From Escherichia coli (GTDB taxonomy: Bacteria; Pseudomonadota; Gammaproteobacteria; Enterobacterales; Enterobacteriaceae): DNA of 64,000 nt. Every line of letters starts with the position of its first letter. Position 1 is the stretch's first letter. Shown here in pieces: positions 21,145 to 62,138 of this stretch. The position numbers were made by a program, and so were the translations under genes. The stretch lies in the NCBI RefSeq assembly GCF_003018255.1, contig NZ_CP027440.1; one strand, given 5' to 3'. The notes below the pieces were generated by a model, which saw only the letters and a program-made list of their open reading frames with translations, made no database searches and was not told where the DNA came from.

Positions 21145-21145
21145 T

Positions 21146-22692: not shown

Positions 22693-22985
22693 CAGAAGAA
22701 CTTATCACCCTGGAAGAAGTGAAACTCCATTGCCGCATCGATGGCGACGATGAAGACCAGTTAATCAGCGGATACATTGCCGCATCGCTTGAGGCGTGCC
22801 AGATACACATAGGCAGGCGCTTTGATGACGGGCTGGAGTTCACGCCAGCCATAAAGATTGGCTGCATGATGTTTATCGCTCACCTGTATGAAAATCGCCA
22901 GATTGTCGCGGATAACGCAAAAACACGCGTACCCATGACGATAGGCGCACTCTGGACGGCTTACCGTGATGTGGGGGTGTACTGA
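22689..22985 (+). CDS. Head-tail connector (gp6-like)
   Basis: 98 aa; overlapping stop/start with neighbours on both sides. Confidence 0.55.
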   Translation: MTEELITLEEVKLHCRIDGDDEDQLISGYIAASLEACQIHIGRRFDDGLEFTPAIKIGCMMFIAHLYENRQIVADNAKTRVPMTIGALWTAYRDVGVY

Positions 22986-23425: not shown

Positions 23426-23591
23426 GCGGGAACAAAACCGCCTTATCCGTGGACTTATAAGGCAGCGTGACGCATGGAAGACACAGGAAACAGGGCATAA
23501 AGATAAAGCGTCAGGACGCGCAGAACGCATCACAGCGAAGCGATTAACCGACCGTGACCGCGAGGTTATGGAATGTTTCCGCAATCGCTGA
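23420..23591 (+). CDS. Hypothetical small protein
   Basis: 57-aa reading frame MNEREQNRLIRGLIRQRDAWK... between HNH and terS; may not be expressed. Confidence 0.25.
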
Positions 23592-23713
23592 TGAGGCTGT
23601 ATGACGGGGTGGGGGGCGTTTTCAGGACAAACCCGACCCCGCCGGGCACCGAACGCCTCCTCAAATTTTTATGCACGGGAATTTTTTGAAAAATAATCTG
23701 GCGAAAAATAAGC

Positions 23714-24070
23714 ATGGCAAGACCACCGAAAGCCCCCGCCTACCTGGATGATATCGCCGTGAAGCAGTGGCGGGAAAAATCTAGGCAGCTTGCGGAACGG
23801 GGAGACCTGACCCCCGCCGACTGGAGCAATCTGGAACTGTATTGTGTCAACTACTCCATTTACCGGAAAGCCGTTGCAGACCTTGCGGCGCGCGGGTTCA
23901 GCATTGTTAACAGTCAGGGCGGCGAGAGCAGAAACCCCGCATTAAGCGCAAAATCCGACGCTGAAAGAGTGATGATAAAAATGGCCTCTTTGCTCGGTTT
24001 TGACCCGATAAGCCGCCGTAAAAATCCACCGGAAACAGAAGAAGAGGACGAGCTTGACCGCCTGGAATAA
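23714..24070 (+). CDS. terS: Terminase small subunit (P27 family)
   Basis: 118 aa, MARPPKAPAYLDDIAVKQWRE...; overlaps the terL start. Confidence 0.75.
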   Translation: MARPPKAPAYLDDIAVKQWREKSRQLAERGDLTPADWSNLELYCVNYSIYRKAVADLAARGFSIVNSQGGESRNPALSAKSDAERVMIKMASLLGFDPISRRKNPPETEEEDELDRLE

Positions 24071-25715: not shown

Positions 25716-25728
25716 TGAGGTCAGCAGC

Positions 25729-26010
25729 ATGACAGAAGCCGAAATACTGCGATTAATCCGCCGCGTCTCTGGAATCAGCCAGCAGGCTGACGAACAGACC
25801 ACGCAGCCGGACAGCGTGACAGCCGAAAATTATGCGCGTGTTGTTGCTGAGGTGATGCGCCGTGATGGTATCCAGCTTAATGATGCGGATATGCGCGACA
25901 TACGGATCCGCGTTCTTGAAATGCTGGCCTACAATCGCCGTGTAGAGATGTACAGGGAGAAAGAGAAAATTACGTACAACTGGAAGAAGCCGGAGCGGTT
26001 ACGGCGGTAA
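25729..26010 (+). CDS. Hypothetical protein
   Basis: 93-aa ORF after terL. Confidence 0.4.
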   Translation: MTEAEILRLIRRVSGISQQADEQTTQPDSVTAENYARVVAEVMRRDGIQLNDADMRDIRIRVLEMLAYNRRVEMYREKEKITYNWKKPERLRR

Positions 26011-26012
26011 CG

Positions 26013-26082
26013 TGTTGATTTAAAGGCGGCTCAATTTTGAGCCTCGTAACTGGTTGATATTTCCGGCAACCTCAATTTGAGG
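26013..26082. repeat. Two tandem GTTGAT...CTCAATTTGAG palindrome units; candidate cos/packaging or operator site
   Basis: Unit 1 gtgttgatttaaaggcggctcaattttgagcc and unit 2 ggttgatatttccggcaacctcaatttgagg, ~40-bp period, in the 400-bp non-coding right end of the satellite. Confidence 0.4.
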
Positions 26083-26413
26083 AGAGCGGAAACATCATCC
26101 CTCACATTCTGAATGGTCATAATGACCACGCAGGCCATCGAGGCAACCATAGCGATCATCGTTACGGTTGGAGCTTTCCGCCATTGGTGGAAAAGGTGCA
26201 CATCTGGATCATCATTACGGTGATCAAGGGTATGTAAAACCCACCAGCCTGATTAAAGGTTAACCGGAAAAAAAATCCGGTAGCCCCGTTATGGGGATCC
26301 CCATATCGACATTAACGCCCCTCATGAATTGGTGCGCTTCCCCCTGGAAAGATTACCCGCCTGTATATTTCTTGTGTCTATTTGTTCCACGTTGTTTCAT
26401 ACAGTGCACCGAA

Positions 26414-26439
26414 CGGTGTAGTTAATGGTGTAGTCAATT
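26414..26439. repeat. attR core of the satellite
   Basis: Identical 26-mer to 12454-12479. Confidence 0.8.
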
Positions 26440-26531
26440 TGCGATTTTTGGCACTTTTTGTAGTGCGGGTTATTTAATTAAATCAATGTGTTATTGAAAA
26501 TAAGTTATAGATATATCCCATTTATAACTCC

Positions 26532-48324: not shown

Positions 48325-50548
48325 TTTCGGACTCCAGTTGCGCAACCTGTTCTGGGTTTAAACCTGCTTTGAGTAATAGTGATTGCATCGAAACTTGTAA
48401 TTCGCGTTGAATTGTCAGGACGCGATCCAACGTTTCCTGGCTGATAACGCCTTCGGTGACCAAAAACTTGCCGAGCGGCAGAGAACTGCGTTCATGGCGC
48501 AATAACAACACGTTAATTGCTGAACGATTAATATGACCGAGCGTGGTCAGTATTTCGGCGAACAGGAACTGATGCGGCACATATTGCCGCCAGATTTCAC
48601 CGGCCTGCTGTTCCGTGAGCCACTGATGCTGAACCGCATTGTACAACATTGCCCGCGGGTCGTGACCGCGTCGGCGTGCATACCAGTGACGTAACCCCGT
48701 GACAATTTGTCCGCGCAGAACAATGACGTAACGCACTTTGCGTCCGACTTTACGCGTCAGGGCTGCCAGCGAAACCGGGTCAATACCATCTTCACTGCCG
48801 ACAATTAACTCATCATTTTCCAGACGCAGCGGCAGCACTGCATAATGCAGCGCCACGGAAGCCGGCATTTCGGCAATCAGTGATGAAGGGATCTGCCAGG
48901 CGTCGATCGACTCCCACGCCACGCCGTTTTGCTCTGCCAGCGCCTGTGCCAGCTGTTCGGCGCTAATCAGCCCCTGCATCAGCATTGAACCGCCCAGGCG
49001 TAGACCTTCGACGCGATTACGCAGTGCTGTATCGAGTTGTTCTTCAGTGATGACCTGATTTTCCAGCAGGATTTGGCCTAACGGGCGCAACGAGCGGGTA
49101 TCGCCAGTCACGCTGGGGAAGTCATGCGTTGTTTTATCCCACGCGACGCGACGTGGATCGCCGTGTTGAAGTACCTGTTTTAACGCGCGCCAGTTGGCCA
49201 TGAAGTTAATCAGGTTGCCCCAGAAAAGACGCAGGACAGATAGCAGCCCCTGCGTCAGACCGTAGTAGCCAGTGACAAAAATCACCCGCTGCACGATGCG
49301 GTTAACCATCAAACCAAAGTTTAGCCACAGCAGGGTCATTAACCATGCGCTGCCGCTGAAAATAGAAAGGAAATGCCAGGCATCGGGCCACAAACTTTCA
49401 TACGCCAGTAACAGCAAAAGCTGGATCATCACCAGCATCGCGAGGAAGCTGACAAAGTTACTGATTGCCCCTTTGCGGTCGCGCCAGAGAAAGTAGTTCA
49501 GCGTCAGGCTGGAGGTCCATTTGTGGGTTTTAAAGCCCTGGAAAACAATGCCGATGATCCAGCGAGATTTTTGTCGAACCGCAGTCGAAAAGGTATCGGG
49601 GAAATATTCGCGCACGCAGATCATGTTTGACGTCCGCGCGTGCTGTAAAAATTTACGCTGCTCGCGTTCTTTGGCTTCGTCCACCACCGGAAAACGGACA
49701 AAAATTTCCGTCATACCTTTTTCTTTCAGGCGGAAACCAATGTCGTAATCTTCAGTCAGACTCTGCACGTCGAAAGCAATACCGTCACCGTCAGCTAACA
49801 GTGCGGTCACGGCGCGGCGGCTGAAACAGGTGCCGACGCCTGCGCTGGGCACCTGTCCGGCGAGGGCTTCACGCACCGGAACATCTTTGCCATGCAGTTC
49901 TGAAAACTCATCAATGTAGGTCATGCTGGTGAAGTGCGTCCATTCGCGTTCGAACGGATACACTGGGATCTGAATCAGATCTTTACGCTCGACCAGATAG
50001 TTGAACAGACGCAATTCCATCGGTGAAATCACATCTTCGGCGTCATGCAGAATAAAACCAGCAAAAGCGAAATTGGCGCTACGTTCAAATTGGGTGATGG
50101 CGTCCAGCACGTTGTTCAGACAGTCGGCTTTGCTGGTGGGGCCAGGACGCGCGCAGACTACCTTATGCACGTTCGGGAAGCGAGCGCACACTTCGTCAAC
50201 ATCACGCTGAGTATCGGGGTCGTTGGGGTAGGTGCCAACAAAGATATGATAGTTTTCGTAGTCGAGCGTGGTCGCCGCCAGCTCGGCCATATTGCCGATG
50301 ACGCCCGTTTCATTCCACGCCGGAACCATAATCGCTAACGGTTTTTCATCTGGTTTATACAGTTCGCGGTAACTCATTCGCGGGTAGCGGCGATAAACAC
50401 TCAACTTGCGTTTAATGCGGCGTACCCAGTAGACGACATCAATAAAAAAATCGTCCAGCCCGCTGATGAACATGATGACCGCTAACGTTATCGCGATTAC
50501 TTTTAAGCCGTAGAGCCAGGTAGCAAAAACATCAAGAAGCCAGTCCAC
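48311..50548 (-). CDS. nfrB: Inner-membrane family-2 glycosyltransferase NfrB
   Basis: 745 aa, N-terminal TM segments plus GT-2 domain and C-terminal regulatory domain; overlaps the nfrA start. Confidence 0.85.
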   Translation of the reverse strand: MDWLLDVFATWLYGLKVIAITLAVIMFISGLDDFFIDVVYWVRRIKRKLSVYRRYPRMSYRELYKPDEKPLAIMVPAWNETGVIGNMAELAATTLDYENYHIFVGTYPNDPDTQRDVDEVCARFPNVHKVVCARPGPTSKADCLNNVLDAITQFERSANFAFAGFILHDAEDVISPMELRLFNYLVERKDLIQIPVYPFEREWTHFTSMTYIDEFSELHGKDVPVREALAGQVPSAGVGTCFSRRAVTALLADGDGIAFDVQSLTEDYDIGFRLKEKGMTEIFVRFPVVDEAKEREQRKFLQHARTSNMICVREYFPDTFSTAVRQKSRWIIGIVFQGFKTHKWTSSLTLNYFLWRDRKGAISNFVSFLAMLVMIQLLLLLAYESLWPDAWHFLSIFSGSAWLMTLLWLNFGLMVNRIVQRVIFVTGYYGLTQGLLSVLRLFWGNLINFMANWRALKQVLQHGDPRRVAWDKTTHDFPSVTGDTRSLRPLGQILLENQVITEEQLDTALRNRVEGLRLGGSMLMQGLISAEQLAQALAEQNGVAWESIDAWQIPSSLIAEMPASVALHYAVLPLRLENDELIVGSEDGIDPVSLAALTRKVGRKVRYVIVLRGQIVTGLRHWYARRRGHDPRAMLYNAVQHQWLTEQQAGEIWRQYVPHQFLFAEILTTLGHINRSAINVLLLRHERSSLPLGKFLVTEGVISQETLDRVLTIQRELQVSMQSLLLKAGLNPEQVAQLESENEGE

Positions 50549-50745
50549 ACAAAAACCTTACATTAACGCTGGTTATGTTTAGGGTGGCGTATATTAAGGT
50601 TTTTTATGAATTGTGACAGCTTTTTACCATTAATAGGTATGACTATTGCGGCACGTTATTTTTACACTGGTTATAAAAGTTGCCGTTTGCGTAGAATGTA
50701 GACAAAAGCGTGGTGTCAAGGAGGGGAGGTTAACGCAGGGAAAGA

Positions 50746-51882
50746 TTACGAAAGCCCGCTCCCAGCAAGGACTGACGCGAGATAGTTTCTGTCCATGGCT
50801 GCTTTTCGCAACTTACGTCTTAACCCTGCCTTGAATACCTTATCATTCGTCAAAATATTAATAGCGATGTGCCGTAGCCCTGAAAATAATTCTGCTGCAT
50901 TTCCTCTTCTTATTTTGCAGTCGTCTTCATTCATTACCACGTCCAGACGCCAGTGCAGCTTATTCTCCACGTGCCAGTGGTTTCGGATTGCTGTGGCGAA
51001 CTTCTCTGCGGTTAAATCAGCAGAACTGATATAATATCTGACCGTCATTTCTGGCTCTTTCTTTTGTTCTGCTATTATTGACCGAAAGGAGACTGCCACG
51101 CATAATTTCTTCAGTCCTTTCCATTCAAACGTGAAATCAATAAGTTCATCAGGGACATCGCAAACAATGTGAAGCCGGATTTCTTCTCTGCCGTGACTCT
51201 TTTCACTAATTGCGTAACTGTCATGCTCTGGATTATTTAATTCTTTCAGTGGGAATTTTTCCTCAAAGGCTTTATTAAGCCGCCCCTGATTTCCTTTTAC
51301 AGCGAATAAATAATCACCGCCCTGTTTTTGTATCTTCTCTGCAATATCTTTCTGGCAACCCATCGCATCAGTTGTGATGATTTTTCCTTTAATATCCAGC
51401 ATGTTAAGAAGTTCTGGGATAGCTGTAATCTCATTAGATTTCTCATCCGTCCTGATCTGTCCGATGACCAGACTGTGCATTGTTGAGAACGCACTAATGA
51501 CATGAATCGCTCCCCTGCGGCGACTCCTGTCATAAGAATGCCGGAGTGTTTTTCCATCGATTGCAATAACGTCTTTATCATCTGAAGTATGGCAATCTCG
51601 CATCCAGTTAATAAAGCACTCGTGAAATTTTGAAGGACTGATACAGGATACAACTCTGGCGATGGTATCGTGAACAGGAATACCATTTTCAAAATCACCA
51701 TATTGTTTTAAAAAATCGAGATGTGTTTCCCCAAAATCCTCTATATCTTCCCAGCCTTCTGCACCAGAAATAACGGCACAAATAGTCAACAGTAGAATAT
51801 CCGACAATTTATGTTCCACTTTCCAGGCTTGTCTGTAATCGGGGATAATAGAAATATGTTCCATCAATTTTTTAAGTTCCAT
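50746..51882 (-). mobile_element. ISAs1-family transposase (H-repeat-associated protein)
   Basis: 378 aa, [51 protein letters not shown]...; classic H-rpt ORF at the distal end of an Rhs element. Confidence 0.85.
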
Positions 51883-51908
51883 TTTGTTCTCCTTAATTAT
51901 GTAAGGAG

Positions 51909-52147
51909 TATTTGATCATGTATACGCAATAAAAAACAGCTTCAGGTAATGAGGAATATCTCGATTTTTAAACATAAAATGCGAATTACTTAGTACAAAA
52001 AATGTACTTCTGATGATCTTTCCCTGGTATTTGATCATGTATAAGCAATAAAAAACAGCTTCAGGTAATGAGGAATATCTCAATTTTTAAACATAAAATG
52101 CGAATTGTTTAGTACAAAAAAGCAGCGTTACGTGATCTTTCCCTGGT
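51909..52147. repeat. Two tandem ~119-bp direct repeats
   Basis: tatttgatcatgtata(c/a)gcaataaaaaacagcttcaggtaatgaggaatatct...ctttccctgg at 51909-52026 and 52028-52147, ~93% identical. Confidence 0.8.
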
Positions 52148-52272
52148 GCAGGAACTGAGGAAGGAACTTTATCAGGTTAAACAGGTGGTGAAGGGAATGA
52201 AGAACGGGATATCCGGCGTATTACGCGAGGTATAAAAATAAAAGCCGGGAGATTGTCACTCCCGGCAACATA

Positions 52273-52554
52273 TTATTTTTTTATTTCATTATATCTGATA
52301 AAAAAAGTATTTAGCGCATCATGTTCATCTTGTGAGAACAATAAAATAATTTTATCCCATGAATGTCCTGTTACTCCATAATAGTCTTCAATATAAGATT
52401 GAAGCCTTATTAATATCTCAATATTGACGATTTCTTTTGGCTCTCTCATTTGCCATCCATCCAGGAAAGCTTTTAACGCCGATATGGTATGCCTGCTTAA
52501 ATATAAAGCTGGTCTTTTTTCTATCATATCAATCAGTTTAACAATATCATTCAT
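52273..52554 (-). CDS. Putative immunity protein for the orphan Rhs toxin tip
   Basis: 93-aa AT-rich ORF starting 3 bp after the orphan toxin stop. Confidence 0.5.
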   Translation of the reverse strand: MNDIVKLIDMIEKRPALYLSRHTISALKAFLDGWQMREPKEIVNIEILIRLQSYIEDYYGVTGHSWDKIILLFSQDEHDALNTFFIRYNEIKK

Positions 52555-52556
52555 AA

Positions 52557-53180
52557 TTAAAACCTTGATGGAGTAATGGTGTATTCGCCAGGAGAGTATA
52601 TATCATTCAGCCAATCTTCATACTTTATACCAGAAGGATTCATATTATCAAAAACTGTATCACCTACTTTTATTGCTTCATGATGACCATTAGTTGCTAT
52701 ATTTTTACCTATTCTATCACTCCATATATTGCCAAAGGCACCTTGTTTATTTTTAGTTTCGAGTATGAGATGCTCACCATTTACCCCAGCTTGTTGCATT
52801 TTACTTTTTAACGCTGCGGCAAATTTATCGCATTGAAAAAGCTGTTTAAACTTATCACTTATTGTTGTTGCAAGATCCCTTGTTTTTGCGATATCGCAAA
52901 TGGTTAATCCTAATGGATCAATATAACCAAGGGGATTATGAACATATGCATAATTGTTTATCCCGCCTCTCAGCCCTATCGGGTCACTCACCAGGTACAT
53001 CCCTGTTTCCGGCTCGTAATACCGGAACCGGTTATAGCACAGCCCGGATTCCGTATCCTGCCACTGTCCTGCATACAGCAGGCCGGGGTCGGGGTCGGCT
53101 TCCGGGTCCAGCTCCCCGCGCGGGTCCGGGTAGCCGGTGTCTGCGGGCAGACTGAGTGCCAGCCCCCACAGGCTGGTTTG
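52557..53180 (-). CDS. Orphan Rhs C-terminal module (core end with DPxGL motifs plus ~115-aa toxin domain)
   Basis: In frame with the upstream orphan core but separated by TGA; reads ...YRYYEPETGMYLVSDPIGLRGG...YIDPLGLTICDIAKTRD... Confidence 0.55.
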   Translation of the reverse strand, partial: QTSLWGLALSLPADTGYPDPRGELDPEADPDPGLLYAGQWQDTESGLCYNRFRYYEPETGMYLVSDPIGLRGGINNYAYVHNPLGYIDPLGLTICDIAKTRDLATTISDKFKQLFQCDKFAAALKSKMQQAGVNGEHLILETKNKQGAFGNIWSDRIGKNIATNGHHEAIKVGDTVFDNMNPSGIKYEDWLNDIYSPGEYTITPSRF

Positions 53181-54476
53181 TCACGGTCGCCACACGGTTT
53201 TACCTTCACTGTTAAAGAGCATCAGCGGACGGCCCGTCAGGTCGCTCACCGCATGATTCGTCCGCGTCACCCACTGCGGGGCCACCGACGGATGCGGCTG
53301 CCGTACCCGGCTGCACTGCTGGCTTATCAGCTCAAAGCCGTTAAACACCAGGTGCCGTACGCTGTACAGTTTATCATCGCGGTATTCCCGGATTTCCGCA
53401 ATATTGTCGCCGTCCCACAGGTACGTAAAACGGATTTTCTTCCGGTCGCAGCGTTTTTCCGTCCGCCTGCCGCTGGCGTCGTAGCGGTATTCCCACTGCT
53501 CACCCTGTGCGCTGCAATACCCGGTCAGCTGGTCACGGCTGTCCCACCGGAACCGCTCTGTTTCCGGGCGGTAGCCGTCACGGTGTCTGGTGCGGCTGAC
53601 CATCCGGCCTGCGGCGTCATAGTCATACTGCGTGTTTCCGGCCTGTTTCAGCCGGTGGCCTCCGGCATACTGGTCAGTCTCTTCACTTATCCGGTGCCTG
53701 CCCGCAGACTGCGCCTTCAGGTAGCCACAACTGTCATAGCCATAGGACTCATCGCCTTCGCCATAGCCCAGCCCGGTGCCTGAGGCTGTCACCGCCGTGA
53801 CCTGACCGTTCCGGTCCAGCCGGTATTCCCGCCGTGTTTCCCGTCCGTAATCTTCCCGGCTGGTGACAGCCGACACATTGCCCGCGCTGTCGTAACGGTA
53901 CTCCCGTACCAGTGAGGGGAGCAGCCCGCCCCATGTGGTTTCCTCCGGGAAAAATCCGGCGCGCTGGGTGACAAGCTGGCTGGCTGCATTCCAGCCCTGC
54001 TCACAGGCAAAACCCCGGTTACTGTGCCGGAGCACTTCACGTCCTGCCTCATCACGGCTGAACGTCAGCGTCTCATCCCCCGGCAGGATAACCTCCGTCA
54101 GTTCTCCGGCGGCGTTGTAGCGGTAGGTGGTTTTCAGCAGGGATTCACCGGGATGTCTGTCGCGTTCATCTTCCGGTGGCAGGATACAGCGGATGACGGT
54201 GTGTTCATCGGGGTAGTGGTATTCAATGGCCCGTCGGCCCTGAGTGGTGACATTCACCCGCCCGCGTTCGTCATAGCCGGTGCGCTGTGATGTGCCGTCC
54301 GGGCTGAAGATACCCGTCAGCCTGCCGGATTTGTCATACGCATACTGCGTTTTGCCTTCCGGCGTGATGACTTCTGCCAGGCGGCCTGCGGCGTCCCGGC
54401 TGTAGAGGATGGTTTCCTCCAGACCGTTAACCCTGGCGGTACACAGGCCATCGGCGTCATAGCGGTAACGCCAGGC
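53181..54476 (-). pseudogene. Orphan rhs core fragment (duplicate of the 3' core of the main rhs)
   Basis: ~1.3 kb ~98% identical to 55589-56885; 5'-truncated; ends in the same in-frame TGA. Confidence 0.75.
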
Positions 54477-54503
54477 TACTCCGTTGTACCCAGCTCATAG
54501 AAT

Positions 54504-54926
54504 TTATCTAGCAATTTGTATTAAGGGGGTTTCACCCACATGTTTTAATAAACTCATTAACCAGATGGCCTCTTCTCTCGTTCCGGAGTATATTACCTTC
54601 GATTCATTTCTAATAATTCGAAGTGCTTCTTTTGTATCAATCGAAAAAGCCTTACGAATGACTTTTATAGTTTCCATCTGTGATTTTATATTTTCAAGTC
54701 TAACATTCCATAAACCCTCAAAATCAATCAATTGTAGACGAATTTTTTCTGGGGGAAAGCCTATATCATCTGATTCACTACGTAATCCGCAATTATGGCA
54801 TATAATTGATTCATACCATGCGAGTATACCATTGTGACTCGTCTGCCCTATAGCTATAGAACATATTTTTCCACAGCAAGGACACTCAATAGTCGTTTTA
54901 AATTCATCACCAAACACTATAACCAC
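54504..54926 (-). CDS. Putative immunity protein for the main Rhs toxin (Cys-rich zinc-ribbon-like)
   Basis: 140 aa, CPCCGK...CHNCG motifs; start overlaps the toxin stop by 10 bp. Confidence 0.55.
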   Translation of the reverse strand: MVIVFGDEFKTTIECPCCGKICSIAIGQTSHNGILAWYESIICHNCGLRSESDDIGFPPEKIRLQLIDFEGLWNVRLENIKSQMETIKVIRKAFSIDTKEALRIIRNESKVIYSGTREEAIWLMSLLKHVGETPLIQIAR

Positions 54927-55588
54927 CCTCTCATCCGCTTATATCTTCGAATCGTCTCGTAAAATTTCTGTTCCATCTCAGTACCTTTGGGATGATGATC
55001 ATTCAATCCTCGCTTCCACCACCTATGATGTAATTCTTCATGAATAATAACATCTCTTAATGCTGCACGAGACGAAAAACTATTTTTACCAAACTGAGTT
55101 CCTTCCCAAAGTTTAGCAATCCCTGTTCGCATAAACGGATTGTATTGAGGGATATATGTTAGTTTAAGATATGCAAAATCTTCTTTAAGTATGGCTGTAA
55201 TTGCCTTATTTCTGGCTCTGGCCGTAGAACCTGTAACATGACCGAGATCAGAAACATAAGTCTGTGGCCCTCTAGAAAACTCGACTGTTTTATTAATTAT
55301 ACTAGTTATAGCTAATCCCAGCGGATCAACATACCCACACGGATTAGGCACATACCGGTAAGTCTGCTCACCCCCCAGCAACCCCAGCGGATCACTCACC
55401 AGGTACATCCCTGTTTCCGGCTCGTAATACCGGAACCGGTTATAGCACAACCCGGATTCCGCATCCCGCCACTGTCCTGCATACAGCAGGCCGGGGTCGG
55501 GGTCGGCTTCCGGGTCCAGCTCCCCGCGCGGGTCCGGGTAGCCGGTGTCTGCGGGCAGACTGAGTGCCAGCCCCCACAGGCTGGTTTG
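54917..55588 (-). CDS. Rhs C-terminal module: core end (DPLGL...DPLGL) plus toxin domain with HExxH motif
   Basis: Same frame as the rhs core after TGA; QTSLWGL...LYAGQWRDAESGLCYNRFRYYEPETGMYLVSDPLGL...IIHEELHHRWW... Confidence 0.6.
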   Translation of the reverse strand, partial: QTSLWGLALSLPADTGYPDPRGELDPEADPDPGLLYAGQWRDAESGLCYNRFRYYEPETGMYLVSDPLGLLGGEQTYRYVPNPCGYVDPLGLAITSIINKTVEFSRGPQTYVSDLGHVTGSTARARNKAITAILKEDFAYLKLTYIPQYNPFMRTGIAKLWEGTQFGKNSFSSRAALRDVIIHEELHHRWWKRGLNDHHPKGTEMEQKFYETIRRYKRMRGWL

Positions 55589-58500
55589 TCACGGTCGCCA
55601 CACGGTTTTACCTTCACTGTTAAAGAGCATCAGCGGACGGCCCGTCAGGTCGCTCACCGCATGATTCGTCCGCGTCACCCACTGCGGGGCCACCGACGGA
55701 TGCGGCTGCCGTACCCGGCTGCACTGCTGGCTTATCAGCTCAAAGCCGTTAAACACCAGGTGCCGTACGCTGTACAGTTTATCATCGCGGTATTCCCGGA
55801 TTTCCGCAATATTGTCGCCGTCCCACAGGTACGTAAAACGGATTTTCTTCCGGTCGCAGCGTTTTTCCGTCCGCCTGCCGCTGGCGTCGTAGCGGTATTC
55901 CCACTGCTCACCCTGTGCGCTGCAATACCCGGTCAGCTGGTCACGGCTGTCCCACCGGAACCGCTCTGTTTCCGGGCGGTAGCCGTCACGGTGTCTGGTG
56001 CGGCTGACCATCCGGCCTGCGGCGTCATAGTCATACTGCGTGTTTCCGGCCTGTTTCAGCCGGTGGCCTCCGGCATACCGCTCAGTCTCTTCACTTATCC
56101 GGTGCCTGCCCGCAGACTGCGCCTTCAGGTAGCCGCAGCTGTCATAGCCATAAGTCTCATCGCCTTCGCCATAGCCCAGCCCGGTGCCTGAGGCTGTCAC
56201 CGCCGTGACCTGGCCGTTCCGGTCCAGCCGGTACTCCCGGCGTGTTTCCCGTCCGTAATCTTCCCGGCTGGTGACACCTGACACGTTACCCGCGCTGTCG
56301 TAACGGTACTCCCGTACCAGTGACGGAACCAGCCCGCCCCATGTGGCTTCTTCCGGAAAAAATCCGGCGCGCTGGCTGACAGGCTGGCCGGCTGCATTCC
56401 AGCCCTGCTCACAGGCAAAACCCCGGTTACTGTGCCGGAGCACTTCACGTCCTGCCTCATCACGGCTGAACGTCAGCGTCTCATCCCCCGGCAGGATAAC
56501 CTCCGTCAGTTCTCCGGCGGCGTTGTAGCGGTAGGTGGTTTTCAGCAGGGATTCATCGGGGTGTCTGTCGCGTTCATCTTCCGGTGGCAGGATACAGCGG
56601 ATGACGGTGTGTTCATCGGGGTAATGGTACTCAATGGCCCGTCGGCCCTGAGTGGTGACATTCACCCGCCCGCGTTCGTCATAGCCGGTGCGCTGTGATG
56701 TGCCGTCCGGGCTGAAGATACCCGTCAGCCTGCCGGATTTGTCATACGCATACTGCGTTTTGCCTTCCGGCGTGATGATTTCTGCCAGGCGGCCTGCGGC
56801 GTCCCGGCTGTAGAGGATGGTTTCCTCCAGGCCGTTAACCCTGGCGGTACACAGGCCATCGGCGTCATAGCGGTAACGCCAGGTCACGCCGCCCCAGTCA
56901 TGCTCTTCCGTCACCCGCCCACAGTTGTCGAGAAGATAACGGTATGACTCACCCTGCGGGTTGATGACTTCTGTCAGTTGCAGCGTGTCTTTATCATAGC
57001 GGTACTGCCAGCGGTGGCCTTCACCGTCCGTTCGCGCCACCGGCAAATCAAACGGGCCGTATTCCATTGTCCAGACAACGCCGTTACCGTCCGTGTACGC
57101 CAGCAGGTTGCCGTGGCGGTCATAGCGGAATCCTTCTGCGCCGGTTCCTGCCCGCTCAAGGCCGCTCAGTTTATGGTGCTGCTGCCACTGCAACCGCACT
57201 GACTGACCGCCGGGGCCGCGCATCTTCACCGGCAGGTCGTGACCACTGTATTCGGTGTGGTGTTCACGGCCCATCACGTCGGTGAGTGTTTCCGGCCGGT
57301 TGTGGTGGTCGTACTCTATGCCCAGACGCCGTTCATCCTGGCGGAATATCCCCGACAGCAGCCCCTGAGCGGTGTACGCCAGCCGGGTCTCTTCGCCCTG
57401 TGGCGATACCAGACTCACCGGCAGGCCGCGTTCATCGCACTGCTGTGTCCACGTCTGCCCGGCAGGGTCGGTGATGTTGCTGAGCAGGCCGCGCTCATCA
57501 TAGCGGTACAACCACACCGCGCCGTCTGCCGCCGTATAACGGCTTAACTGACCGTGTACGGCGTTGTATTCAAATTTCTCCACCCGTCCGGCAGGGGAGT
57601 GGCGGGCCAGCAGGTGATGGAATTCATCCCATTCATACGTGGTGGTGCTGCCGTCCGGCGCTTCTTCCCGCAGAATATTGCCGTCAGGATCATAGTAATA
57701 ACGGTGAATGCCCTTGCCGTCCGTCACGGTGGTGCAGCCGTCACTATAGTCCAGCGTGGCGTTGTAATAGCCGTCCGCCCCGGTGACATTCACGCACCGG
57801 CCCTGTTCATCGTAGGTGAAACGGCTCCACGTCTGGTCGTTATCGGACCAGCGGATGATCCGGTCCGCAGCGTCGTACTCATAAAACAGGTGGTAGTCCA
57901 GCCGCGCATCCGCTTCGGTCAGCCGCCCCCGCGCATCCTGTTCGTAGGTCGCCAGCGTCTGTATGCCGTTATCCGTGCGGTGAATGGCTTTCAGGTAGCC
58001 GCTGGCGTGGTACGTCAGTTTAAGCCGGATCCCGTCGGTGTGACTGACACCCGTGATGCGGTACTGGCTGTCGCGCTCAAACGTGATGCGGTTGCTGGCG
58101 GTGTCGCTCATCCCGCCCAGCATGTACATCCGGTCACCGGGGCTGTGTGCCAGGCGGTCATCATTGGTATCGTCAGTCACCGGGTGGCGCAGGCGCATTC
58201 CCGGAAAGGCGTCATAAAAGAAGCGGCTGCTCAGGGCATCACGGTCGAACAGCTCCAGGTAATCGTCGCGGCGGCGCAGGATATACTGGGCGTGATACGG
58301 GTTAACCGCCGTATCACTGTCTCCGTCGAAGGCAAAGTACAGCGTGGCTCCCTGGCTGATGATATCCACCCGGTTTCCCTGTTCACGCACCCAGGCGTAT
58401 TCGCTCCAGGAGTCGCTCCAGCCCACGCCCGTCAGGCCATGCAGTGGCAGTACAGAACTGTGGAAACGGGTGAAGGAGAGGGGGAGTGTCTGGCCCAGCG

Positions 58501-59728
58501 TAAAGTCGGTACGTTCGTCGCAGTATGCGCCGGTTACCGGATCGACAGGATCTGTTACCCATCTGATGACTTTATTGGCAATACTTTTTAACGACTTACC
58601 TGTTTTCCCCAGCAACGCGCCGAGCTTTGCCCCCAGCAGCTTCCCGCTTTTCCCCAGCAGGTTTCCCAGTTTGCCGAGTTTCGCCAGATTCCCCAGTTTT
58701 CCCAGCAGTCCCGCGGGCGGCAGAAGATAGCTGGCTATCGTTATTCCCCCCAGGATCATTCTCTGCCACGGCGGGAACTCCGGCTGGATATCCAGATAGG
58801 TCACCTGTTCACCGCCAATAAAGACGTCCGGCGAACCTTCCACGATTGCCGCGCTGCACTCCAGTTTGTCGCCCTTGCGCGCGGCAGGCTGATTGTTGAT
58901 AAAGACGTTGCTGCTGCCCTGGGCTATCCTCGGTGGTTTGTTCTCCTTGTCGCAGAGCGCCGTGTCCTCACCGGCTTCCGGGAAATCCACGTCTTTTTTG
59001 ATTTCGCCACGCCCGCCCACCATGGTGGCAAACTCCATTAATACCGGACCGGCGGGAAACAGAAGCGATGCGCCGGCGCTGACGCGATCCATAATACCGG
59101 CATTGCTGTCCGTCAGGGTGATAACAGCGTTCCCCCAGGCCTTCGCCAGTGGCACTGCTTTTTCCGCTGCCGATTCAAGCAGGTCAGTGGCAATATCCCC
59201 CCATGAAGGTTCCCCCTGTGGTGGAGAGGGTATTGCTTCAGTCAGGGGAGGAGGGGGAAGGGTGACGGCGGCCCTGGCTGCTGGCTTACCGTTAATTTTT
59301 ACGTTTTCAGAACCGGTATTGATGGCGCCGTCCGTGTCACAAAAACTGTTTATCCATGACTCAAGCTGGTTCTGTTTCTCCTCCACATAATCACTCGCCT
59401 TATAGCTGGCATACATCAGCGCAGGCACCAGAACCAGCGCATAAGGGCCGGTGGCGCAGGCGGCCATAATCAGGCAACCTTCTGCGATAGTTACTATCGC
59501 CCCCAGCACGGCCCCTGCCAGTGCCCCCAGAAAACTTTTATGCTGAATTTCATCGCCCAGCCTGGCGGCAGGTGGGCCGGACTTCTTTGCTGCCAGCATC
59601 TGTGCAATGGCTTTGTCGTTGGCTGCCCGTTTCATCTGGCTGGCGACCATCGCCTGCTGTGACAGCATTCGCATTGCCAGCGTACCGCCTGCGGTCGCTC
59701 CCTGTGGGCCGCCTGGTCCTTCACTCAT
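55589..59728 (-). CDS. rhs: T6SS Rhs effector: prePAAR motif, transmembrane region, PAAR domain and YD-repeat core
   Basis: 1379 aa; N-terminal AARLGDEIQH (prePAAR AARxxDxxxH), hydrophobic helices, PAAR-like segment, then YD repeats; terminates at TGA just before the DPxGL region. Confidence 0.85.
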   Translation of the reverse strand: MSEGPGGPQGATAGGTLAMRMLSQQAMVASQMKRAANDKAIAQMLAAKKSGPPAARLGDEIQHKSFLGALAGAVLGAIVTIAEGCLIMAACATGPYALVLVPALMYASYKASDYVEEKQNQLESWINSFCDTDGAINTGSENVKINGKPAARAAVTLPPPPLTEAIPSPPQGEPSWGDIATDLLESAAEKAVPLAKAWGNAVITLTDSNAGIMDRVSAGASLLFPAGPVLMEFATMVGGRGEIKKDVDFPEAGEDTALCDKENKPPRIAQGSSNVFINNQPAARKGDKLECSAAIVEGSPDVFIGGEQVTYLDIQPEFPPWQRMILGGITIASYLLPPAGLLGKLGNLAKLGKLGNLLGKSGKLLGAKLGALLGKTGKSLKSIANKVIRWVTDPVDPVTGAYCDERTDFTLGQTLPLSFTRFHSSVLPLHGLTGVGWSDSWSEYAWVREQGNRVDIISQGATLYFAFDGDSDTAVNPYHAQYILRRRDDYLELFDRDALSSRFFYDAFPGMRLRHPVTDDTNDDRLAHSPGDRMYMLGGMSDTASNRITFERDSQYRITGVSHTDGIRLKLTYHASGYLKAIHRTDNGIQTLATYEQDARGRLTEADARLDYHLFYEYDAADRIIRWSDNDQTWSRFTYDEQGRCVNVTGADGYYNATLDYSDGCTTVTDGKGIHRYYYDPDGNILREEAPDGSTTTYEWDEFHHLLARHSPAGRVEKFEYNAVHGQLSRYTAADGAVWLYRYDERGLLSNITDPAGQTWTQQCDERGLPVSLVSPQGEETRLAYTAQGLLSGIFRQDERRLGIEYDHHNRPETLTDVMGREHHTEYSGHDLPVKMRGPGGQSVRLQWQQHHKLSGLERAGTGAEGFRYDRHGNLLAYTDGNGVVWTMEYGPFDLPVARTDGEGHRWQYRYDKDTLQLTEVINPQGESYRYLLDNCGRVTEEHDWGGVTWRYRYDADGLCTARVNGLEETILYSRDAAGRLAEIITPEGKTQYAYDKSGRLTGIFSPDGTSQRTGYDERGRVNVTTQGRRAIEYHYPDEHTVIRCILPPEDERDRHPDESLLKTTYRYNAAGELTEVILPGDETLTFSRDEAGREVLRHSNRGFACEQGWNAAGQPVSQRAGFFPEEATWGGLVPSLVREYRYDSAGNVSGVTSREDYGRETRREYRLDRNGQVTAVTASGTGLGYGEGDETYGYDSCGYLKAQSAGRHRISEETERYAGGHRLKQAGNTQYDYDAAGRMVSRTRHRDGYRPETERFRWDSRDQLTGYCSAQGEQWEYRYDASGRRTEKRCDRKKIRFTYLWDGDNIAEIREYRDDKLYSVRHLVFNGFELISQQCSRVRQPHPSVAPQWVTRTNHAVSDLTGRPLMLFNSEGKTVWRP

Positions 59729-59747: not shown

Positions 59748-60209
59748 TCAGCGCGGCTGGTCCTTTTGGATGTCATTCTCCGGTGGCAACGGGGTGAAGC
59801 TCTTTATCACCTCCAGCAGCATCGTCTTTTGACTGTTCTTCAGGGATAAGGAGGTGCTGAAAGTGAAGGTCAGCAGCGTATCTCCACGCCGCTGGAATAC
59901 GGCTATCTGGTCAATCCGTCCCTGGTTCCCCTCATCTTCCGGACCGTTCCAGGAATAATCCAGCAGCCAGGCCGGGGCCTCTGCCAGAGTGATTTCCCGG
60001 CAGGCATGTTCGGTGTACCCATCAAGTTTGCCCTGGTACAGCGCCAGCGTTTCCTGGTACAGCTCTGGTGTCAGGGTTCCCTGTGGAACGGCTTCGCGGG
60101 TAATGACCAGGTTGATGCCACTGTTATCTGTGGACACCAGGACCTGCATTGACTGATCCTGCCATTGCGATGGCAGCTGAATATGACCTTCATTAAAAGT
60201 GAACTGCAT
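59748..60209 (-). CDS. Eag-type (DUF1795) chaperone for the prePAAR effector
   Basis: 153-aa ORF between vgrG and rhs; family assigned by context and size. Confidence 0.65.
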   Translation of the reverse strand: MQFTFNEGHIQLPSQWQDQSMQVLVSTDNSGINLVITREAVPQGTLTPELYQETLALYQGKLDGYTEHACREITLAEAPAWLLDYSWNGPEDEGNQGRIDQIAVFQRRGDTLLTFTFSTSLSLKNSQKTMLLEVIKSFTPLPPENDIQKDQPR

Positions 60210-60236: not shown

Positions 60237-62138
60237 TCAGTTGATGAAAACAGAACCGCCCACGATGGTGATGCCATCCTTCGACAGCCTGATTACCGTC
60301 GATTCCCCGACCTGTAGCTGAATGCCATCCGGCGTCAGCGCAATTTTGCTTTCCTCCACGGCCAGCATAATTTGCTTAATTGCCGTATAAGCCTGTATAC
60401 CGTCGCCTTCGCCACCATTGTTTACAGCGTCAACATGCACTGAACCGGCAATCGTGCCTCTGTCCTGAAAAACATCCTCAGATAAAGACCCTTTTAGTAC
60501 GCCTGTGATTTTGTGGCCTTTTTCCACCGTAAGAAGGCGGTTACCTTCCTGGATCATGACCGTCTGGTCATTTTTTACGGTTTCGCGGTGATCGTGTTTT
60601 ACGGTGGTGGTACGGTCGTTGAGTACCTCGGTATCCATGTTCTTCTGGGCGTGGATGTAGACCTGTTCTTTCCCTGTCGCATCGTCAAACTTCAGCTCGT
60701 TAAACCCGCTGCCCATATATGTTTTGGAGCGGATGGTCATCTGCGTCTTCGTTCCCGGCAGGCTGCCCGGCGAGCGGTTATCTTCGTGGTAGGTGCGCCC
60801 CATAATGATCGGCTGGTCCGGATCGCCGTTGAGGAAGTCCACAATCACCTCCTGACCCACGCGCGGTATCGCCAGGTTGCCAAATCCCGGCCCCGCCCAC
60901 GCCTGCGCCACCCGTATCCAGCACGAACTGTCCTGATTGGCCGGGTTATAGCGGTCCCAGTTGAATTTCACCCGCACCCGGCCATGCTCGTCGCAGAAGA
61001 TTTCCTCTCCCGCAGGCCCCGTCACGACGGCGCTCTGCGGACCGTCCACTGACGGCTTTGGCTTCGGCTGAGGTCGCCACGTCCGGTCTGCCGGTATTAC
61101 CGCAAAGTGGTTATTCAGCGTGGTACCTGACCCCCTGCGTCCCGGCACCGCCTGCGGCTGTTCGCCGTGCAGTTCGCTCGCCACCACCTGCCATTCCCGG
61201 TTCAGGTTCGCCTGCGGATGCTCCGTCAGCACAATTCGCCGTCCAGGCCATATCTCCGGCGAGCGGCTCATTCCCCGCGCGGTTTCGGCGTTGTTTCGCC
61301 AGCCGTCCATCTGCCAGCGGGCAAAGTTCTGCCCGTGGGCGCTCTTGAAACGCCCGGGCCAGTCATACACTTCATACTGTGTGCGCTGGTAATCCTGATG
61401 CTGGCCTTCCTGGTCAAAACGTCCGGCCCAGCCGGGGCGTTTAAAGGTGTAGTCTTTGGTCACCACAGAGGAAGGACGGATTTGTGCGCTGTAGCGGAAC
61501 TGGCTGATGCAGAGGGTGCTCACCTCGGTACGGGTGTTCGGGTTCCAGGGGATTTCAAAGGATTCCGGCAGATAGCGGACCGTGTCGCACAGCACCAGAC
61601 TCTGGTCGGTACTTTTCTGCGCGTGCTCCTCATAGAAGAAGATGCCTTCCTCCGCTGCTATCCGGCAGAGAAAGTCGTAATCGGTTTCACCGTACTGGAC
61701 ACAAAACTCACGGGAAGGATGCGGCTCACTGAACAGCGGGCTCCACTCCGTGACGTCATTTTCCTGCAGTATGGTGCCGAGGATGCTTCTGATGTCCTCG
61801 TTCTGGAATATACGGAAGTTCTGACGCAGTCCTGCCCGCCACAGCGGCGGGCGCACCTTCATGCTGTACAGCATCTGGTTTTTGTCGTTCTCCCCGAGTT
61901 CAAACCAGGTCACCACGCCTTTCACCCGGCGCTGTACGTCATCGCCCTGCCATACCGTCAGGTAGGCCATTTTGTCCAGCACCTGCGCAAATTCAAGGGA
62001 GAGAAACTGCTGACTGACCAGAGAAAGGTCAAGGGAAAAAAGTGAAGAGAGTGACTGGGTGAGATGAAAGGAGACCACCGCAAAAGCGTCCGGTGGCAGG
62101 CCGTCCACTTCCAGTGTGAAACGTAATCCGGTTGACAT
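60237..62138 (-). CDS. vgrG: T6SS spike protein VgrG
   Basis: 633 aa, MSTGLRFTLEVDGLPPDAFAVVSFHLTQSLSSLFSLDLSLVS...; gp27/gp5-like VgrG N-terminus. Confidence 0.85.
   Translation of the reverse strand: MSTGLRFTLEVDGLPPDAFAVVSFHLTQSLSSLFSLDLSLVSQQFLSLEFAQVLDKMAYLTVWQGDDVQRRVKGVVTWFELGENDKNQMLYSMKVRPPLWRAGLRQNFRIFQNEDIRSILGTILQENDVTEWSPLFSEPHPSREFCVQYGETDYDFLCRIAAEEGIFFYEEHAQKSTDQSLVLCDTVRYLPESFEIPWNPNTRTEVSTLCISQFRYSAQIRPSSVVTKDYTFKRPGWAGRFDQEGQHQDYQRTQYEVYDWPGRFKSAHGQNFARWQMDGWRNNAETARGMSRSPEIWPGRRIVLTEHPQANLNREWQVVASELHGEQPQAVPGRRGSGTTLNNHFAVIPADRTWRPQPKPKPSVDGPQSAVVTGPAGEEIFCDEHGRVRVKFNWDRYNPANQDSSCWIRVAQAWAGPGFGNLAIPRVGQEVIVDFLNGDPDQPIIMGRTYHEDNRSPGSLPGTKTQMTIRSKTYMGSGFNELKFDDATGKEQVYIHAQKNMDTEVLNDRTTTVKHDHRETVKNDQTVMIQEGNRLLTVEKGHKITGVLKGSLSEDVFQDRGTIAGSVHVDAVNNGGEGDGIQAYTAIKQIMLAVEESKIALTPDGIQLQVGESTVIRLSKDGITIVGGSVFIN

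Follow-up and report, generated by a model that had tools for sequence, protein, structure and literature searches.

An orphan Rhs C-terminal cassette with a Tox-PL-2 tip and a putative immunity gene in the nfrB-cusS vgrG-rhs island of Escherichia coli

Results

The vgrG-rhs island and its flanks

The window, i.e. the whole stretch of 64,000 nucleotides of E. coli DNA analysed here, harbours a vgrG-rhs island at the nfrB-cusS site (Table 1). Its main rhs gene shows the components of a class I prePAAR-PAAR-Rhs effector of a type VI secretion system (T6SS): a prePAAR motif, a PAAR domain, an RHS shell and, next to the gene, an Eag/DUF1795 gene together with vgrG. The Pfam profiles found are PF25799 (23.5 bits, just under the cutoff of 25), PF05488 and PF05593 in the main rhs and PF08786 in the adjacent gene. 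Such an effector should also be encoded by a single ORF that spans PAAR domain, core end and toxin; here this ORF is interrupted by a TGA. Downstream of the main gene and its putative immunity gene lies a second, start-less rhs fragment (the orphan), followed by a small ORF and a terminator-like hairpin (8-bp stem with 7 GC pairs, GCCGGGAG...CTCCCGGC, then TTTTATTTTT). Beyond it, the symE remnant breaks off at 52145/52146, where the end of the ISAs1 sequence cuts it, and after the ISAs1 gene about 120 bp of the IS end are present in duplicate (51908-52146).

Table 1. Features of the rhs array and its surroundings (positions of the window).
Feature	Position	Strand	Basis or remark
Intact ISAs1 (H-repeat/ISEc1) transposase gene flanking the rhs array	50746..51882	-	
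symE-type toxin gene, 3' remnant, convergent with the immunity ORF	52128..52235	+	PGAP annotation of collinear record; homology boundaries
Terminator-like GC hairpin and T-run directly after the orphan immunity ORF, closing the rhs array	52244..52266	-	Consensus match only
Putative immunity gene of the Tox-PL-2 tip, 93 aa, 29% GC	52273..52554	-	ORF list; homologue synteny
Orphan toxin tip, 115 aa, Tox-PL-2 papain-fold domain, plus stop	52557..52904	-	Coding 52560-52904, stop 52557-52559
Tox-PL-2 signature codons	Cys25 52830-52832; Asn72..His75, His75 52680-52682; Asp86-Asn87 52644-52649	-	
Hyperconserved core end, SDPIGL...NPLGYIDPLGL	52905..52986	-	Part of exchangeable cassette, moves with tip
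5'-truncated rhs core fragment	52971..54475	-	Direct repeat of 55379-56883; BLASTN, frame and mismatch map
In-frame TGA nonsense codon, orphan (ancestral GGA, Gly)	53181..53183	-	92 codons upstream of cleavage-site DPLGL
Junction, 28 bp, between main immunity ORF stop and orphan core start	54476..54503	.	No rhs homology
Putative immunity gene (140 aa) for the tip of the main rhs, without family assignment	54504..54926	-	ORF list, Pfam
Main rhs tip, Tox-MPTase5 metallopeptidase toxin, HEELH motif	54920..55312	-	PF15641, E 2e-29
Main rhs core segment duplicated in the orphan, homologous recombination substrate	55379..56883	-	BLASTN
Identical in-frame TGA, main rhs	55589..55591	-	Separates 1,379-aa PAAR-Rhs shell from core end and toxin
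Main rhs ORF up to the TGA; prePAAR, PAAR, DUF6531, RHS repeats	55592..59728	-	Pfam
DcrB/DUF1795-type (Eag-like) accessory gene, upstream of rhs	59748..60209	-	PF08786, E 2.5e-27
vgrG, T6SS spike gene heading the island	60237..62138	-	Vgr family protein in collinear record's annotation

The orphan core fragment

A BLASTN comparison within the window gives a single ungapped match of 1,505 bp between the orphan and the main gene (97.67% identity, 35 mismatches, 0 gaps); to no other rhs in the rest of the window does the orphan show homology. The initial annotation had described a copy of ~1.3 kb, ~98% identical to 55589-56885. The duplication itself holds, but its extent has to be corrected, since the repeat continues for another 210 bp in the gene-wise 3' direction, where it takes in the core end and reaches the first DPxGL. 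The earlier coordinates of the main gene start at 55589 because of the TGA at 55589-55591; the in-frame TGA common to the orphan and the main rhs had been overlooked.

As had been proposed, the fragment is truncated at its 5' end. The homology ends at 54475/54476, 28 bp past the stop of the main gene's immunity ORF, in-frame stops lie just upstream of the fragment, and no start codon occurs in frame before a GTG at 54257. Apart from the TGA the reading frame is open (the whole orphan frame spans 1.9 kb, with this one codon as the only interruption); a start codon, a PAAR domain and an N-terminal region are missing. At the other end, the homology to the main gene stops at 52971 and the homology to a copy of the cassette that other strains carry at their kdpA-phr rhs locus stops at 52986; both end points coincide with first DPxGL codons. 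The GC content falls from 62% in the core fragment to 35% in the tip and 29% in the small ORF, which had correctly been called AT-rich. We can rule out an assembly or duplication artefact, because three independent genomes of E. coli, all of them complete (JNE112863, JNE23-011 and DETEC-S792), show the same arrangement.

The Tox-PL-2 tip

The sequence following DPLGL opens with TICDIAKTRDLATTISDK... and makes up the whole tip of the orphan. It matches the Tox-PL-2 profile (PF15643) with 80.5 bits (cutoff 25, E 1.2e-22) over profile positions 7-102 of 103 and shows the papain-like alpha+beta fold of this family. The residues C, NxxH and DN, which are the defining signature of Tox-PL-2 (PMC3482391), are intact (QC25DK, N72GHH75 and D86N87), and the corresponding columns are invariant or at least 90% conserved among 76 homologues. 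The tip thus differs from that of the main gene, which belongs to Tox-MPTase5 (PF15641), and the expectation of a different tip of ~115 aa is borne out.

By family, the tip is predicted to be a Cys-His-Asp enzyme with a papain/transglutaminase fold. A profile of the toxin searched against the PDB sequences gave nothing significant. Protein-glutaminase (PDB 3a54, 2zk9, 8z3i) and other deamidases or proteases of the transglutaminase fold (NTAQ1/C8orf32, LapG, SseI) share just 6-17% identity with the tip. No solved structure is related to the tip at the level of sequence. Our best guess, taken from these structural neighbours, is that the tip would deamidate or cleave its substrate at a Gln-type site.

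The 93-aa ORF

The ATG of the small ORF lies 2 bp past the toxin stop, not 3 bp as noted before, and an AAGG motif resembling a Shine-Dalgarno sequence is found 8 nt upstream of it. The encoded protein is predicted to be all-alpha (structure model, pLDDT 94) and belongs to a family of 118 clusters. No assignment to Imm73 or to any other Pfam or NCBIfam family was obtained: 18 members of the family searched against Pfam at E<=1 gave 0 matches, Imm73 included, and none of the 118 clusters carries a precomputed Pfam domain, be it of an immunity family or of any other. A profile of the protein searched against the PDB sequences likewise returned nothing significant. The all-alpha character that the modelled protein has in common with Imm73 is a mere resemblance.

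The homologues of the ORF are located 3-13 nt downstream of Tox-PL-2 toxins. This pairing was found on VgrG-linked Rhs proteins (Burkholderia mayonis, B. ubonensis, Kosakonia), on an Rhs fragment of Neisseria zalophi and on a cargo protein of an extracellular contractile injection system (eCIS) in a Bacteroidetes MAG. The identities of toxin and neighbour fall in parallel (100/100, 76/87, 57/62 and 52/64%), and in one Superficieibacter locus (L009) the gene has been kept beside just 22 residual toxin codons. Because its relatives directly follow Tox-PL-2 toxins across phyla and on unrelated delivery scaffolds, the 93-aa ORF is likely the immunity gene for the Tox-PL-2 tip.

Distribution of the module and recombination with the main gene

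The Tox-PL-2 module was found in 7 of 5,426 complete E. coli genomes. Besides the three genomes with the orphan arrangement, E. coli AF40 possesses the same tip and immunity ORF fused to the main rhs. Joining the two copies of the window in silico by a crossover gives a product to which the AF40 gene is collinear over 5,131 bp with 96.8% identity; the length, too, is exactly what such a crossover predicts. The tip protein is 100% identical in JNE112863, DETEC-S792 and AF40, and by 100% DNA identity also in JNE23-011; the 93-aa ORF is likewise intact in these four genomes, with 100% identity. Both states of the proposed switch therefore exist in nature, the tip lying downstream and presumably silent (the window, JNE112863, JNE23-011 and DETEC-S792) or being fused to the main gene (AF40). 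Among the repeat copies mosaic haplotypes are present, and hence recombination between copies occurs. The comparison across genomes, with the AF40 fusion and the mosaic and gene-conversion tracts, supports the earlier suggestion that recombination with the main gene can switch the tip. However, AF40 may represent the ancestral state that was displaced later instead of a recombinant.

A shared nonsense codon

The TGA haplotype occurs in only 3 of the 5,426 genomes, and all three carry the Tox-PL-2 orphan. A search with the local haplotype of the window, GGA restored, found no exact match in the 5,426 genomes; the TGA therefore resides on a rare haplotype of its own. In the closest relative, JNE112863, the TGA is confined to the orphan, while the main gene has GGA and is intact (about 1,601 aa). 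Main gene and orphan of this strain differ at ~13 sites across the conversion tract, whereas the main gene of the window equals the orphan there. In DETEC-S792 all four copies have the TGA.

The mismatches between the two copies of the window are distributed unevenly. Over 53060-53670 (611 bp, including the TGA) there are none, while 22 of the 35 lie in 53671-53981; in 200,000 random placements of the mismatches no mismatch-free run of this length was obtained. Since the TGA is located inside this 611-bp tract, identical in both copies, the sequence comparison indicates that the codon was copied from the orphan into the main rhs by gene conversion. A crossover anywhere in the repeat would therefore still yield an interrupted gene in this strain. 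Neither the main gene nor any recombinant appears to encode an uninterrupted shell-plus-toxin protein, and the system of this strain appears to be disarmed. As a secondary point, this suggests that main/orphan recombination can do harm: orphan tips may disarm the main effector by gene conversion of their own nonsense mutations, as in this case with an orphan-born codon that was copied into the delivery gene. The TGA may also be consistent with an orphan that is simply decaying.

Discussion

Interpretation of the region and proposed working

With a probability of about 0.85 we regard the region as an orphan, i.e. dissociated, Rhs C-terminal cassette in the nfrB-cusS vgrG-rhs island, consisting of a promoter-less and start-less core copy, a Tox-PL-2 tip and the cognate immunity gene. 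All sequence-level features of the displaced toxin/immunity module named by the initial annotation are present, namely the near-identical truncated core, the unrelated tip after the PxxxxDPxGL motif and the tightly linked small ORF.

In its present place the toxin part is probably silent because it lacks the PAAR and N-terminal delivery region as well as a start codon. The immunity ORF could still be translated from read-through or internal transcripts, and its product would shield the cell from kin attacking with an Rhs effector of the Tox-PL-2 type. Through the 1.5-kb repeat the orphan could undergo RecA-type recombination with the main rhs. Such a crossover would remove 2,408 bp, made up of the Tox-MPTase5 tip, the immunity gene of that tip and the junction, and would join the Tox-PL-2 tip to the delivery-competent gene. 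After delivery by the T6SS, autocleavage behind DPLGL would free the tip, which would most likely modify a target protein in the cytoplasm. Because the module is rare in E. coli, strong selection for it is unlikely.

Alternative explanations

A less favourable view of the region is that of a dead relic, a decaying pseudogene left behind by a past tip displacement, in which neither the toxin part nor the small ORF has a present role. The premature TGA, the missing start codon, the lack of promoter evidence and the rarity of the module in E. coli would fit, as would the fact that in related genomes PGAP lists the orphan as a pseudogene interrupted by an internal stop and that degenerate dissociated tips are common (PMC2935791). 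However, a frame of 1.9 kb that is open but for one codon and a tip that retains every signature residue and has an identical protein sequence in all four other genomes examined do not look like advanced decay. Likewise the immunity ORF is intact, has not changed in these four genomes and was kept in L009 despite the deletion of the toxin, and the orphan recently served as recombination donor to the main gene. We consider a relic unlikely, though by no means negligible. At the other extreme, the module might be expressed internally, as has been shown for the main and orphan rhs tips of Salmonella, and regulate the growth of its own cell like a toxin-antitoxin system. A transcript beginning within the core end would be translated from an in-frame ATG at 53000, which opens an ORF of 147 aa (MYLVSDPIGL... 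plus toxin) that contains the entire tip and is unaffected by the TGA, which lies upstream; the immunity protein would restrain the product. For Salmonella, internal promoters and start sites a short way upstream of PxxxxDPxGL have been reported, and for E. coli P2-like sequences (PMC7043789). The Salmonella P2 region can be aligned to the window in the same frame, but no more than 59 of the 108 nt agree. With the P2 hexamers as assigned in this analysis, agreement is found at none of the positions of the -35 hexamer (0 of 6) and at 4 of 6 in the -10 hexamer (TATAAC vs TACAAT, without the conserved final T); moreover, no clear Shine-Dalgarno sequence precedes the ATG and the promoter scan has no match there. 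A P2 promoter of the Salmonella type is not conserved here and was rejected. The generic sigma-70 scan of the region gave 8 promoter-like matches against 5.8 +/- 2.3 expected from shuffled sequence, which is no excess and hence no evidence for an independent expression of the immunity gene. Internal expression of the toxin is in our opinion improbable. Even less can be said for a recoding of the TGA, by selenocysteine or by programmed read-through, that would leave both genes functional. The stop is a UGA followed by C, which is a weak termination context in E. coli, and a small hairpin (CCAGCC-N6-GGCTGG) is situated 4 nt downstream. This hairpin, however, belongs to the conserved coding sequence and is present in the GGA alleles too, relatives have GGA (Gly) at this codon, including the main gene of the closest genome, and the TGA allele is restricted to the three genomes mentioned. 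An Rfam search of 50500-55500 at E<=1 revealed no SECIS-type or other recoding element, the only match being a chance one to Ssr1 (16 bits vs a gathering score of 820). Recoding was rejected as extremely improbable.

The last alternative concerns the origin of the cassette. In E. coli PEC395 and d1-58 the same cassette (52145-52986 of the window, 842 bp, 96.8% identity) is located between tandem backbones of 5.9 kb, each of which comprises symE, an HTH gene, a gene resembling CHC2 primases, xerC, a hypothetical gene and a core end of 78 bp. Such backbones are present in 66 of the 5,426 genomes (median 4 copies), and they lie downstream of an Rhs whose protein is only about 25% identical to the Rhs of the window. 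The unit of Tox-PL-2, immunity gene and symE could be a mobile tip cassette, carried as cargo by a previously undescribed XerC-recombinase/primase integrative element. This element would join tips to unrelated rhs genes by inserting at their DPxGL-coding end, frequently as tandem arrays, and ISAs1 could have removed the backbone later; that the symE of the window is cut exactly at the ISAs1 end would agree with this. The orphan of the window would then be the fossil of an insertion that lost its backbone through ISAs1. Jackson et al. (2009) predicted an "episomal pool of tips" and an integrase but could not find them (PMC2935791); the element, if real, would be both. In the literature searched, nothing relevant to a recombinase-linked Rhs tip element was found. 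Against an origin of this kind stands that no backbone sequence is found in the window. Furthermore, the 1.5 kb of core in the orphan match the type of the neighbouring gene, which is the signature of homologous displacement (PMC2935791). We regard both the element itself and its part in the history of the window as doubtful, although the comparison points to such an element, outside the window, as a carrier of Rhs tips from one rhs lineage to unrelated ones.

Comparison with known systems

Taken by itself, the orphan cassette is a textbook Rhs orphan module and adds little: the kind of element is known, the allele is rare, and orphan modules of this locus were already described in 2009. The array occupies the same chromosomal site as "position 4" of the E. 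coli clade IV rhs genes (nfrB-cusS; Jackson et al. 2009, PMC2935791), where a full-length rhs is likewise followed by near-identical core fragments each carrying an unrelated low-GC tip. The window differs from this description in its Tox-PL-2 tip, which is rare in E. coli, and in the nonsense codon that was apparently copied from the orphan into the main gene.

The pair STM0291/STM0292 of Salmonella Typhimurium (rhs-main/rhs-CT-orphan; Koskiniemi et al. 2014, PMC3967940) is built in the same way, with a T6SS-linked full-length rhs in front of a start-less orphan that shares its core. Each of the two has its own immunity gene (RhsI), and the recombination which fuses the main gene to the orphan tip has been demonstrated experimentally in Salmonella (PMC3967940). 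The repeat of the window is longer and more similar (1,505 bp at 97.7% vs 522 bp at 95%), the toxin families are others, and both copies of the window are interrupted by a stop. In the orphan cdiA-CT/cdiI and rhs-CT/rhsI modules (Poole et al. 2011, PMC3150448), too, a displaced tip and the immunity gene belonging to it are found downstream of a polymorphic toxin gene of full length, and the modules often adjoin IS or integrase genes, as is the case in the window. In contrast to the cdiA-CT/cdiI modules, delivery would be by Rhs and the T6SS and not by CdiA/CdiB.

The tip itself corresponds to Tox-PL-2 as defined together with Imm73 by Zhang et al. (2012, PMC3482391), given its Pfam match well over the threshold, its signature and its position at the C-terminus of an RHS protein. 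It differs by the adjacent immunity ORF, which matches neither Imm73 nor any other Pfam family, and by its context. In the 2012 survey Tox-PL-2 was found with T2SS and TcdB/TcaC in beta- and delta-proteobacteria, cyanobacteria and firmicutes (PMC3482391), whereas here it is linked to a PAAR-Rhs of the T6SS in Enterobacteriaceae. A candidate immunity family of 118 clusters, which has no Pfam model or solved structure, can now be assigned to these uncharacterised toxins, and the pair has therefore become directly testable.

Anatomy of the orphan module

When 52001-54600 is compared by BLASTN with the remainder of the window, the orphan rhs fragment (52971-54475) aligns with 55379-56883 of the neighbouring main rhs gene over 1,505 bp (97.67% identity, 35 mismatches, 0 gaps); no second match was found elsewhere in the window. 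The initial annotation had described a duplicate of the rhs 3' core of about 1.3 kb; the near-identity stands, while the length has to be corrected to 1.5 kb. The copy lies on the minus strand and represents the 3' part of the core. Its rhs homology starts abruptly at 54475, 28 bp past the stop of the ORF behind the main rhs, with in-frame stops directly upstream and without a start codon at its 5' end. Past ...NPLGYIDPLGL the orphan departs completely from the main gene and continues into a 115-aa tip, followed after 2 bp, and not 3 bp as first given, by a 93-aa ORF. GC content drops along the orphan, from 62% (core fragment) through 35% (tip) to 29% (ORF). The description of a truncated core with a different tip and an AT-rich 93-aa ORF behind it holds.

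The genes of the island lie on the minus strand, the symE remnant excepted, in the order vgrG, accessory gene, main rhs with its tip, 140-aa ORF, orphan, symE remnant, ISAs1 and nfrB. With nfrB on one side and cusS on the other, the island is the E. coli rhs "position 4" (clade IV), which served Jackson et al. 2009 (PMC2935791) as illustration of C-terminal tip displacement.

Table. Features of the island and of the backbone arrays found in other E. coli genomes.
Feature	Coordinates	Strand	Remark
vgrG	60237-62138	minus	
DcrB/DUF1795-type accessory gene	59748-60209	minus	
prePAAR-PAAR-DUF6531-RHS gene (main rhs)	from 59728	minus	
Tox-MPTase5 tip of main rhs		minus	PF15641
140-aa ORF behind main rhs tip	54504-54926	minus	
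Orphan tip	52560-52904		
93-aa ORF	52273-52554		
Terminator-like hairpin	52244-52266		just downstream of 93-aa ORF
symE remnant	52128-52235	plus	symE-type, a type I toxin-antitoxin family
ISAs1/H-repeat transposase gene, intact	50746-51882		between symE remnant and nfrB
Tandem backbone array, PEC395	L015 1998-16492		downstream of PAAR-Rhs, kdpA-phr
Tandem backbone array	L016		downstream of PAAR-Rhs, kdpA-phr
Tandem backbone array, 23CRST046	L017 18834-37492		downstream of PAAR-Rhs, kdpA-phr

At 51908-52146 an ISAs1/ISEc1 end segment of some 120 bp occurs twice. The repeat core comprises 95 nt (51908-52002 and 52027-52121, 96% identity); at 52145/52146 the second copy runs directly into the truncated symE.

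The Tox-PL-2 tip and its putative immunity gene

The orphan tip matches the Pfam family Tox-PL-2 (PF15643) with 80.5 bits at a cutoff of 25, and 421 relatives were found among 1.8 billion representative proteins. An alignment of 76 of these reproduces the C / NxxH / DN signature by which the family is defined (PMC3482391): Cys25, His75, Asp86 and Asn87 show no or almost no variation, and all four are intact in the window tip. It is the fold that suggests deamidation or cleavage of a target-cell protein as its possible activity, because a sequence search found no sequence-level relative among solved structures and the literature offers a prediction only, namely a thiol peptidase or transglutaminase-like enzyme (PMC3482391).

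Searches of Pfam and NCBIfam gave no family for the 93-aa ORF, not even Imm73, the published immunity partner of Tox-PL-2 (PMC3482391). Its family is nevertheless coherent: 18 clusters are close to it, and a profile search extends the number to 118, of which a single one has a Pfam annotation, namely the toxin's own PF15643. Among the homologues with known genomic context, those of Burkholderia mayonis, B. ubonensis and Kosakonia lie 3 nt downstream of a full-length VgrG-linked Rhs::Tox-PL-2 gene. In Neisseria zalophi the distance is 13 nt and the gene ahead is an Rhs fragment with Tox-PL-2; in a Bacteroidetes MAG it is 4 nt, behind an eCIS cargo protein with Tox-PL-2 at its end. In Superficieibacter the homologue stands beside a 22-codon toxin remnant, and in one Nostoc genome it stands alone, no Tox-PL-2 gene being called nearby. 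Toxin and ORF also diverge in parallel. Cognate immunity genes are typically recognised by such a tie to the toxin domain, whatever the delivery scaffold, and this is the likely function of the ORF. Its predicted structure is an all-alpha bundle (pLDDT 94), for which no informative fold match was found.

Exchange between orphan and main gene

The whole query occurs in four of 5,426 complete E. coli genomes, and tip plus immunity ORF in seven. JNE112863 and JNE23-011 share the main-plus-orphan layout of the window; in DETEC-S792 the main gene is followed by three orphans, Tox-PL-2 being the last. AF40 lacks the Tox-MPTase5 module and carries the Tox-PL-2 tip directly on a full-length rhs. When a crossover in the window is simulated in silico, the product and AF40 form a single alignment (5,131 bp, 96.8% identity), and, a 6-bp indel apart, the gene lengths agree exactly. 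AF40 may have arisen by recombination or may represent the ancestral state; whichever its origin, both switch states, tip displaced and tip on the main rhs, occur naturally. Mosaic haplotypes are seen among the nine core copies of the comparison genomes. A 6-bp indel (one extra Asp-Pro, EADPDPGLLY; region of 53093-53098 and 55501-55506) is found in both window copies and in neither JNE112863 copy, which is further evidence for concerted evolution within one genome.

The AF40 fusion gene (locus L003, 14140 downward) is interrupted independently, by a different nonsense mutation. Codon 31, ahead of the prePAAR motif, has changed from CAG to TAG; an ATG follows immediately, so that re-initiation is conceivable.

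JNE112863 is otherwise collinear with the window and lacks a 14.2-kb insertion (12333-26503, near allantoin genes). The insertion encodes an integrase, D5-like primase, HK97-type capsid, prohead protease, portal and large terminase, with no tail genes among seven scanned ORFs of at least 150 aa. It resembles a capsid-forming phage satellite (cf-PICI-like) or else a small prophage remnant.

A nonsense codon shared by both copies

Both window copies contain an in-frame TGA (orphan 53181-53183, main gene 55589-55591; ...GKTVWRP*QTSLWG...). The codon precedes the cleavage-site DPLGL by 92 codons and the first DPxGL by 68. Relatives have GGA (Gly) here, including AF40 and the intact main gene of JNE112863, which is the complete genome nearest to the window. 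Only three complete genomes of 5,426 have the TGA haplotype, all bearing the Tox-PL-2 orphan: in JNE112863 and JNE23-011 it affects the orphan alone, in DETEC-S792 all four rhs copies. Orphan and main gene are identical over 53060-53670 (611 bp, TGA inside), a mismatch-free run whose length none of 200,000 random placements reached, whereas the adjoining 53671-53981 alone holds 22 of the 35 mismatches. Upstream of this tract the window main gene resembles that of JNE; within it the JNE main gene differs from the orphan at about 13 sites, whereas the window main gene equals the orphan. The simplest reading is a gene-conversion tract of 209-600 bp from orphan to main gene. Because the TGA was apparently converted in from the orphan, the main gene as it stands encodes a 1,379-aa shell without core end and toxin, and because both copies share it, a crossover anywhere in the repeat would leave the gene interrupted.

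Recoding of the TGA is unlikely, since an Rfam scan of 50500-55500 at E<=1 returned no recoding-type element and the allele is rare and derived. The orphan tip might be expressed internally as a toxin-antitoxin-like module, as rhs tips in Salmonella are expressed from internal promoters with toxin-antitoxin-like behaviour (PMC7043789). Translation from the in-frame ATG at 53000 would yield 147 aa; however, the Salmonella P2 promoter is not conserved in the window and a promoter scan found no promoter-like site near this ATG, and we regard internal expression as improbable.

A possible recombinase-borne cassette outside the window

The cassette 52145-52986 (first DPIGL codons, tip, immunity ORF and symE 3' end) recurs with 96.8% identity in the E. 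coli strains PEC395 and d1-58, where tandem 5.9-kb backbones flank it within the kdpA-phr rhs locus. Every backbone comprises SymE, HTH, a CHC2 primase-like gene, a XerC-type tyrosine recombinase, a hypothetical gene and a terminal 78-bp "core end". Of 5,426 E. coli genomes, 66 contain it (median four copies, up to 6 per genome), with a different tip/immunity pair behind each copy. In the tabulated arrays one copy has the Tox-PL-2 cassette of the window. The Rhs upstream of the arrays is only about 25% identical to that of the window. Homology to rhs starts exactly at the DPIGL codons, at which the main/orphan homology of the window ends. The backbone may act as a site-specific carrier of Rhs tips; a literature search found no description of it. 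It might conceivably have delivered the cassette of the window, in which no backbone sequence is present and symE is cut by the ISAs1 end.

Wherever the cassette occurs, a symE-type gene faces the Tox-PL-2 immunity gene in convergent orientation. Superficieibacter (L009 8346-8615), PEC395 and d1-58 have it in full length, the window in truncated form.

Comparison with known rhs loci

The orphan module is real, and its interpretation as a displaced toxin/immunity module, proposed in the initial annotation, is supported by the anatomy, the conserved linkage of tip and ORF and the exchange between copies. More unusual are the natural fusion variant in AF40, the unannotated putative immunity family for Tox-PL-2, the lead of a recombinase-borne cassette, and the shared, apparently converted nonsense codon. 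The orphan itself belongs to a well-known kind of element, of which it represents a rare allele, and its locus had been described before.
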